A DNA stretch of 64,000 nucleotides from a virus (taxonomy: Duplodnaviria > Heunggongvirae > Uroviricota > Caudoviricetes). The notes below the pieces were generated by a model. It saw nothing but the letters and a program-made list of their open reading frames with translations. It did not search any database and was not told where the DNA came from. The number at the start of each line of letters is the position of its first letter. Positions within the stretch are counted from its first letter, which is position 1. This document shows, piece after piece, positions 40,525 through 40,785 of the stretch. The stretch is taken from the IMG/VR virus record IMGVR_UViG_637000265_000001; one strand, 5' to 3'. The position numbers were made by a program, and so were the translations under genes.

Positions 40525-40725
40525 TTATTTAATCAATGAGCTCTGAAAGGCATGAAGTCTATCATCCAAGTCTCAATTGATCGATACTTGCTATGTCTGA
40601 TGAGACAAAACTGAGACACATAAGGCCTCACAATGGCTTGCAAGGCTTTACATGTTTTGATGTGGTGGGACGTGTGAGCGCAGTGTTGATGGGATAATCC
40701 TTTGAATTACAAGCGGATTCTTATA

Positions 40726-40771
40726 ATTCGTAATGCGAAGGTCGTAGGTTCGACTCCTATTATCGGCACCA
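40726..40771 (+). other. att core: 46-nt copy of the 3' part of tRNA-Thr (thrW) without the 5' half; attP-type context
   Basis: ATTCGTAATGCGAAGGTCGTAGGTTCGACTCCTATTATCGGCACCA equals thrW from the anticodon loop to CCA (from memory). Upstream sequence is not tRNA. Confidence 0.8.
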
Positions 40772-40785
40772 TTTAAATCAATAAG

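Follow-up and report, generated by a model that had tools for sequence, protein, structure and literature searches.

Chromosomal context of the locus

The O-antigen glucosylation genes gtrV, gtrB and gtrA, a short phage attachment (att) core and a tyrosine integrase gene (int) lie side by side within a 64,000-nt stretch of DNA, the whole of which is referred to here as the window. It corresponds to roughly 236.7–300.7 kb of the chromosome of Shigella flexneri 5b strain 8401 (CP000266.1); the outermost 12.6 kb on the right and 11.6 kb on the left agree with that record at every position. The replicon is a chromosome of 4.57 Mb, in which the right flank of the window runs thrW-proA-proB-phoE-crl-frsA-gpt-pepD and the left flank carries IS2, a type VI secretion system (T6SS) remnant, dnaQ and rnhA, so that proA/proB and dnaQ/rnhA lie on opposite sides. 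The chromosomal flanks on both sides, together with the identity to CP000266.1, show that the DNA is neither a phage nor a plasmid record, a possibility that an earlier interpretation made from the letters of the window (the sequence-only reading) had left open when it proposed an attP-type junction inside a chromosome. Extending the analysis past the window ends, as that reading had recommended, located the complete tRNA-Thr(CGU) gene thrW, which ARAGORN places on the minus strand of the flank, starting 12 nt past the last base at the right end and inverted relative to the internal core. All 64 kb between IS2 and thrW consists of phage and IS DNA only.

The locus is the SHI-O serotype-conversion island of S. 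flexneri 8401 (Nie et al. 2006, BMC Genomics 7:173, PMC1550401). The passages of that genome paper that deal with SHI-O report gtrA, gtrB and gtrV, approximately 15 kb of SfV DNA and, around the island, an inversion mediated by IS elements; the same passages do not mention an attP-type junction, an SfX-type integrase or tandem lysogeny. The IS2 end beside the T6SS remnant and dnaQ forms one endpoint of a large inversion relative to the gene order of E. coli K-12. Contig More10kbN_1001754 (102,720 nt) of JGI sample 3300001148 does not differ from strain 8401 at any base across the two ends of the window, and most likely represents a spiked or contaminating laboratory strain rather than environmental sequence.

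Organization of the phage modules and insertion sequences

The features of the window are collected in Table 1. Two unrelated sets of structural genes, two lysis cassettes and two integrase 3′ ends are present, which implies that more than one phage contributed to the array. Between positions 21762 and 62376 the genes follow the order given in the sequence-only reading, beginning with the terminase (here truncated), the head and tail genes and gtr, continuing with att and int, and ending with the early and lysis genes. This block is bracketed by inverted copies of IS600, both of which face inward with their left ends; in total IS600 is present three times in the region and the 3′ end of int is duplicated. 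Since IS1 and IS4 break the early/immunity region, the distal prophage is very probably not inducible, even though its int and xis genes are intact.

Table 1. Phage, att and IS features of the window, listed from left to right
Feature	Position	Strand	Remarks
IS2 end	1–85		
Second lambdoid late/lysis cassette (holin, lysozyme, Rz)	86–5650	−	
IS911	5651–6870		
P22/Sf6-like podovirus structural module	6871–19522	+	Truncated at both ends (IS911; IS600 at 19523)
IS cluster	19523–21761		IS600 1–90 (+) carrying IS629, fused head-to-head to IS600 837–1 (20924–21761)
IS629	19608–20917		Target duplication ACG
SfV-like myovirus structural module	21762–37869	+	Large terminase cut by IS600 at SfV coordinate 1873
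gtrV-gtrB-gtrA O-antigen glucosylation operon	37992–40524	−	98.6% identical to SfV; GtrA_DPMS_TM, Glycos_transf_2
gtrV	37992–39245	−	
gtrB	39242–40165	−	
gtrA	40162–40524	−	
P arm of attP (upstream of gtrA), SfV/SfI/SfII type	40525–40725		0, 1 and 2 mismatches to SfII, SfI and SfV, respectively; unlike native SfX P arm
att core, 46 nt, ATTCGTAATGCGAAGGTCGTAGGTTCGACTCCTATTATCGGCACCA	40726–40771	+	Exact match to thrW positions 31–76 (anticodon loop to CCA)
18 nt right of core, common to both integrase types	40772–40789		Last position of SfV-type matches, 40789; first of SfX-type matches, 40726
int, complete SfX/HK542-type tyrosine integrase (386 aa), P′ arm	40786–41946	−	PF00589; identity to SfX U82084
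xis, excisionase (115 aa)	41823–42170	−	HTH_17; 97.6% identity to SfX xis region
Distal lambdoid prophage early, replication, Q and lysis region (HK542/mEpX2-like)	42171–62376	+	No SfV early-region match
IS1 transposase ORF	47893–48396		
IS4	51694–53040		
IS600, complete	62377–63640	+	Left end facing lysis genes, right end abutting int′
int′, last 359 nt of a second X-type integrase	63642–64000	+	Inverted repeat of internal int; thrW 12 nt beyond window

The insertion sequences leave further marks on the map. IS911 cuts the P22-like large terminase gene (6850–7914) at its 5′ end. The head-to-head joint between the two IS600 pieces at 20923/20924 shows 1 nt of microhomology, as in an illegitimate joint rather than the product of simple recombination between IS copies. 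IS629 was considered as an inversion joint inside the window and is ruled out, as it has simply inserted into IS600, duplicating the target ACG. In CP026799.1 a further IS600-adjacent deletion brings IS600 within 73 nt of the start of int. The exact portal protein occurs in all of its contexts with the same IS600-cut terminase, and a search made through this protein for a version of the block without the inversion gave none, the contexts being either the same or breaking at IS600. The lysozyme of the left cassette (1100–1633) is 100% identical in protein sequence to that of an IS-ridden lambdoid prophage elsewhere on the chromosome (CP000266.1:2764886–2785419), and this shared prophage DNA implies the presence of further long repeats that could mediate rearrangement.

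The att core and the gtrA-int spacer

The sequence-only reading had recognized the 46 nt at the centre of the junction as the 3′ part of thrW, and this is borne out by a 46/46 match that ends exactly at 40726 and cannot be due to chance. As it had also stated, the 5′ half of the tRNA is missing, since ARAGORN finds no tRNA gene within the window. The start of gtrA lies 201 nt to the left of the core, and to the right 14 nt separate the core from the stop codon of int, which begins at +15, again as described. The core is identical to the published core of SfI, SfII, SfV and SfX and, apart from thrW next to the window end, occurs only once in the window and ∼20 kb of its flanks.

The interval 40525–40785 is the complete gtrA-int spacer of 261 nt. 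Comparison with published attP regions, which the sequence-only reading had suggested, shows that the spacer is that of SfII (no mismatch to AF021347), with one mismatch to SfI and two to SfV, and that the P arm of SfX is different. For SfI, the same 46-nt core and 261-bp spacer have been published (PMC3636060). The DNA to the left of 40726 is a phage P arm identical to that of the SfII attP and is not bacterial, and to the right the core is followed by a complete phage int, so that phage DNA lies on both sides. A host-origin tRNA pseudogene, or a relic similar to ptwF, is ruled out by the phage DNA on both flanks. The core and the 18 nt to its right form a 64-nt interval (40726–40789) that is shared by both types of att site, and the switch between the two arms falls inside it.

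The junction combines arms of two phage types

SfV, SfII, SfI and SfIV match the window up to position 40789 and no further, whereas the SfX integrase and the HK446/HK542/mEpX2 group match it from 40726 onward. Relative to SfX (U82084), the integrase arm is 100% identical over the 3′ 419 nt, in which the core and the last 359 nt of the gene are included, and identity is 98.7% when 1039 nt are compared. The integrases of SfV, SfI, SfII and SfIV are of another type, with only ∼68–70% nucleotide identity to the window int as measured over the 3′ part. On the opposite side, the native attP of SfX, in U82084 as well as in its published form, has a different P arm that is ∼100 nt longer and leads to gtrA(X); it aligns to the window with 65% identity and 100 gap columns. 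With a left arm of the SfV/SfI/SfII type and a right arm of the SfX type, the site is a hybrid attP of the form P(SfV/SfI/SfII-type)-core-P′(SfX-type). It is not a native SfX attP, since the SfX P arm differs, and it is not a native SfV attP, since the integrase is not that of SfV.

No record joining the two arms was found among 50,697 phage records, in which the P(V) arm always occurs with a V-type int and the X-type int occurs with other P arms. Likewise, no complete E. coli genome was found to cover at least 80% of positions 39800–41800. The prophage content of the window is correspondingly mixed: the early region of SfV (21.8–35.6 kb), which in a canonical SfV prophage would adjoin attP together with an SfV-type int/xis, has no match in it, and of the parts expected in an SfX prophage, int-xis is present (98.7% and 97.6% identity to U82084) but gtrX is absent from the window and ∼20 kb of its flanks and the P arm at the junction is not of the SfX type.

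The integrase remnant beside thrW and the gtr operon

The exact integrase protein was found in 824 blocks, where it usually adjoins thrW-proA. Within the array, however, it is the truncated int′ that neighbours the complete thrW, and thrW-int′ is therefore the true attL; its thrW starts 12 nt outside the window, and the site is in inverted orientation, with an integrase cut short by IS600. Over their common 359 nt int′ and int differ at five positions, all of them synonymous and with the alleles unmixed, so that the two are alleles acquired independently and any exchange between them was confined to 40726–40806. The int′ allele is also seen at ordinary thrW-int junctions in other genomes.

The serotype 1a strain 0228 (CP012735.1) has exactly the same junction between IS600 and int′, on the distal side of the gtrA-P-core of an SfI-type prophage. 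It is therefore doubtful that int′ is the truncated integrase of the SfV-like phage, whose own integrase is found nowhere in the window, and int′::IS600 is probably an older relic of the locus that predates this phage. The sharing of int′::IS600 with a serotype 1a strain also indicates that the path to the present gene order was more complex than one inversion and one deletion.

The distal attR (P-core-host) was not found in the window or in ∼20 kb of its flanks. The expectation of a second gtr phage, derived in the sequence-only reading from strains with combined type and group antigens and in line with the 5b typing of this strain, was not confirmed, as the gtrV cluster is the only one in the window and ∼20 kb of its flanks, with no gtrX; a literature search for strain 8401 together with gtrX also found nothing. 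A metagenome scan with the SfX P arm and core returned 20 unrelated contigs, none of them from the JGI sample that matches 8401, the coverage of that sample in the collection not being known. GtrV that is 100% identical also occurs in E. coli-like contexts, beside a P4-type integrase at mlaA, beside dacC and beside ybhB/bioA, and with different tail modules; identical GtrV at differing att sites implies that the gtrV cassette moves between phages of different integration specificity.

Origin of the hybrid junction

We consider it quite likely that the site is a hybrid attP-type (P-O-P′) junction representing an internal scar of serial lysogeny at thrW. Tandem or serial lysogeny at thrW, regenerating an attP-like junction between two prophages, had been put forward in the sequence-only reading, and it gains support from the two types of arm, from a published SfI-SfX junction and the E. 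coli EH08-18-36 array (both described below) and from the surplus modules. The involvement of IS600 in the subsequent rearrangement, also proposed there, is supported by the position of the 21762–62376 block between inverted IS600 copies and by the inversion of thrW relative to the core.

According to this proposal, a lambdoid prophage with an SfX-type integrase would have occupied thrW itself or one of the att sites of the thrW array, and a gtrV-carrying SfV-like myovirus would have recombined its attP with the attL of the resident prophage; alternatively, the two integrations may have taken place in the reverse order. Either way, the SfV-type P arm on the gtrA side would have been set against the core and the SfX-type int. 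There is no functional tRNA at the junction, the core being the stretch of identity in which Int would exchange strands. The array may then have decayed through insertions of IS600, IS629, IS911, IS1, IS2 and IS4, and the proximal phage would have lost its own int-to-terminase region. Homologous recombination between the inverted IS600 copies may have flipped the terminase-to-lysis block, which is now inverted relative to thrW, and a larger inversion would have separated the array from its distal end.

If the block is turned back, thrW and its core would be followed by the int′ remnant and IS600, then by the truncated terminase with the head and tail genes and gtrV, and after these by the P arm, another core, int and the early and lysis regions; this is the order of a tandem array with a deletion beside IS600. 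One path that fits all the data could have begun with the integration of the new phages at an att site of the old remnant array, followed by an IS600-adjacent deletion from the IS600 of the remnant into the terminase of the proximal phage, then by insertion of an IS600 downstream of the lysis genes of the distal phage, and finally by the flip of the block. The order of the integrations and the exact series of rearrangements are what we infer; the hybrid make-up and identity of the arms, the chromosomal setting, the place and orientation of thrW, the IS map and both the experimental and the natural precedent are shown. Against a tandem origin stands the fact that thrW and int′ are inverted relative to the internal core, so that the array is not a simple tandem, as do the failure to locate a distal attR or a second gtr cluster in the window and ∼20 kb of its flanks and the probable older age of the X-type int′ beside thrW. 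Moreover, the model accounts for the resemblance of the block to one near-complete phage only through the positions at which the deletion ended and the IS element was inserted.

This resemblance is the starting point for a different explanation, in which a single mosaic phage, with SfV-like late genes, gtrV, an SfX-type int/xis and an HK542-like early region, would have had this junction as its native attP and would have come to lie in vegetative order through relocation or capture by IS600. Such a phage could have arrived as an excised circle re-inserted through IS600 homology, or the order could have arisen by excisive attL × attR recombination on sites inverted by IS600, which would restore thrW-core-int′ and regenerate attP. 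The block does amount to a near-complete permuted genome, lacking ∼2.7 kb around cos and the 5′ end of the terminase, and it is bracketed exactly by two IS600 left ends. In addition, thrW-core-int′::IS600 resembles an unoccupied ancestral site, as strain 0228 has the same IS600/int′ junction on the distal side of its SfI prophage; every Shigella-type context of the exact GtrV and the exact portal has the same arrangement; and the five unmixed SNPs between int and int′ fit an exchange at the core. However, no such phage occurs among the 50,697 records, and the simple versions of this scenario predict direct IS600 repeats, or an IS600 right end by the truncated terminase, whereas the copies observed are inverted with their left ends inward. 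It would also need an extra deletion, as well as further prophages for the P22-like module and the second lysis cassette. We therefore regard a single mosaic phage as an unlikely source of the junction. A variant with a single prophage, in which an IS600 × IS600 inversion was followed by attL × attR recombination, reproduces most of the map but places the wrong IS600 end by the terminase, and is kept as a minor rival.

The hybrid attP, with its intact int and xis, and the inverted thrW attL 23 kb away, with a P′ arm of 359 nt, might also constitute a live segment that Int can invert, or the present order might have been made by excisive recombination on the inverted att sites; both seem improbable to us. 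In the first case a flip would move the int/early/lysis block and leave both types of junction unchanged. In the second, 'excision' would invert DNA instead of releasing it, and would leave an attB-like site and an attP in the chromosome.

Still less probable is an exchange that did not depend on Int, in which two co-resident or co-infecting phages would have recombined through RecA, or undergone gene conversion, within the 64 nt that they share. The 64 identical nt present in both att regions would suffice for a rare homologous exchange, and lambdoid phages are highly mosaic, but the longer gtrA/gtrB homology nearby would be the favoured place for a crossover and was not used, the P arm being of the V type up to the core, and the outcome is the same as that of a documented Int-mediated product. 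That the Sanger assembly of 2006 collapsed repeats at the core or at the integrase might be suspected in a region this rich in repeats, with three IS600 copies and a duplicated int 3′ end, but is hardly credible and is excluded by independent assemblies that share the junction, with gtrV-gtrA-core-int contiguous in CP026799.1, QWSL01000056.1, DADKYZ010000055.1 and a JGI contig and the right-hand context reproduced in UGYR01000001.1 and JANXIZ010000001.1.

Implications for SHI-O

With a serial-lysogeny origin, SHI-O in serotype 5 S. flexneri is not one SfV remnant but what is left of two or more prophages that had accumulated at thrW. The integrase beside gtrV is of the SfX type and not that of SfV itself, which bears on the annotation of the locus. 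With the array cut by six kinds of IS, the gtr genes are now fixed. The arrangement also bears on the accumulation of serotype-converting phages at a single tRNA site and on the combined serotypes that result. Hybrid att sites in tandem lysogens are classical and a junction of this type has already been published, so that the mechanism proposed here is already known and not new.

Comparison with known att sites and tandem lysogens

Among individual phages, SfV (U82619), SfII (AF021347) and SfI (JX509734) have an attP whose spacer is identical to that of the window or differs from it by 1–2 nt, but their integrase is of the other type described above and the early region of SfV has no counterpart. 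The integrases of SfX (U82084), HK542, HK446 and mEpX2, which target thrW, are of the same type as the window int, and the normal chromosomal context of the exact window protein is thrW-core-int; SfX differs from the window in its longer P arm leading to gtrA(X), the window having no gtrX.

The closest published junction was made in the laboratory. Sun et al. (2011, BMC Microbiol 11:269, PMC3306764) introduced first SfX and then SfI into a serotype Y strain, and found by PCR and sequencing tandem prophages between proA-thrW and yaiC, with SfI at the attL of SfX. The sequence that joins SfI to SfX in S. flexneri 036_1d (Additional file 1, panel F) reads gtrA, P arm, core and intX. Over 292 aligned columns it shares 98.3% identity with window positions 40500–40805 and, like the window, has a gtrA of the myovirus-type Sf phages, a P arm of the SfI/II/V type, the 46-nt thrW core and the SfX int. 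In that lysogen, however, the proximal phage is SfI with gtrI and both prophages are intact and in direct order, whereas the window has gtrV, is scrambled by IS elements and partly deleted, and has its junction inverted relative to thrW.

A natural counterpart is found in E. coli. A P(V)-like arm of ∼120 nt is contiguous with the core and an X-type int in seven E. coli genomes, including that of EH08-18-36 (NZ_CP063511.1), which has an intact double lysogen of ∼87 kb at thrW, from ∼4,651,100 across the record origin to 37,361. Beginning at proA, thrW and a first core, this array comprises a V-type int, an early region resembling that of lambda, the head and tail genes of a myovirus of the SfV/e14 type, cargo genes and a P(V-like) arm with a second core. 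An X-type int with xis follows, then a siphovirus similar to lambda and a P(X) arm with a third core, up to the host diguanylate cyclase gene; all three cores are direct and the middle att site is hybrid. The middle junction, P(V-like) arm-core-X-type int-xis, is like that of the window, and beside thrW EH08-18-36 retains a myovirus with its V-type int. It differs from the window in that its cargo is a restriction-modification system rather than gtr, its distal phage is a lambda-like siphovirus, its cores are direct and it has no IS disruption. An array such as that of EH08-18-36 is precisely what the tandem model needs as its starting point.

Hybrid sites of the reciprocal type are present in strain 0228 (CP012735.1). 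At position 1445 of the examined stretch a P(X) arm and core are followed by a V-type int remnant::IS600, and at position 8565 the SfI gtrA, P arm and core are followed by an X-type int remnant::IS600 with the same breakpoint as in 8401. These reciprocal-type hybrids show that serial integration at thrW is a recurrent event in S. flexneri.
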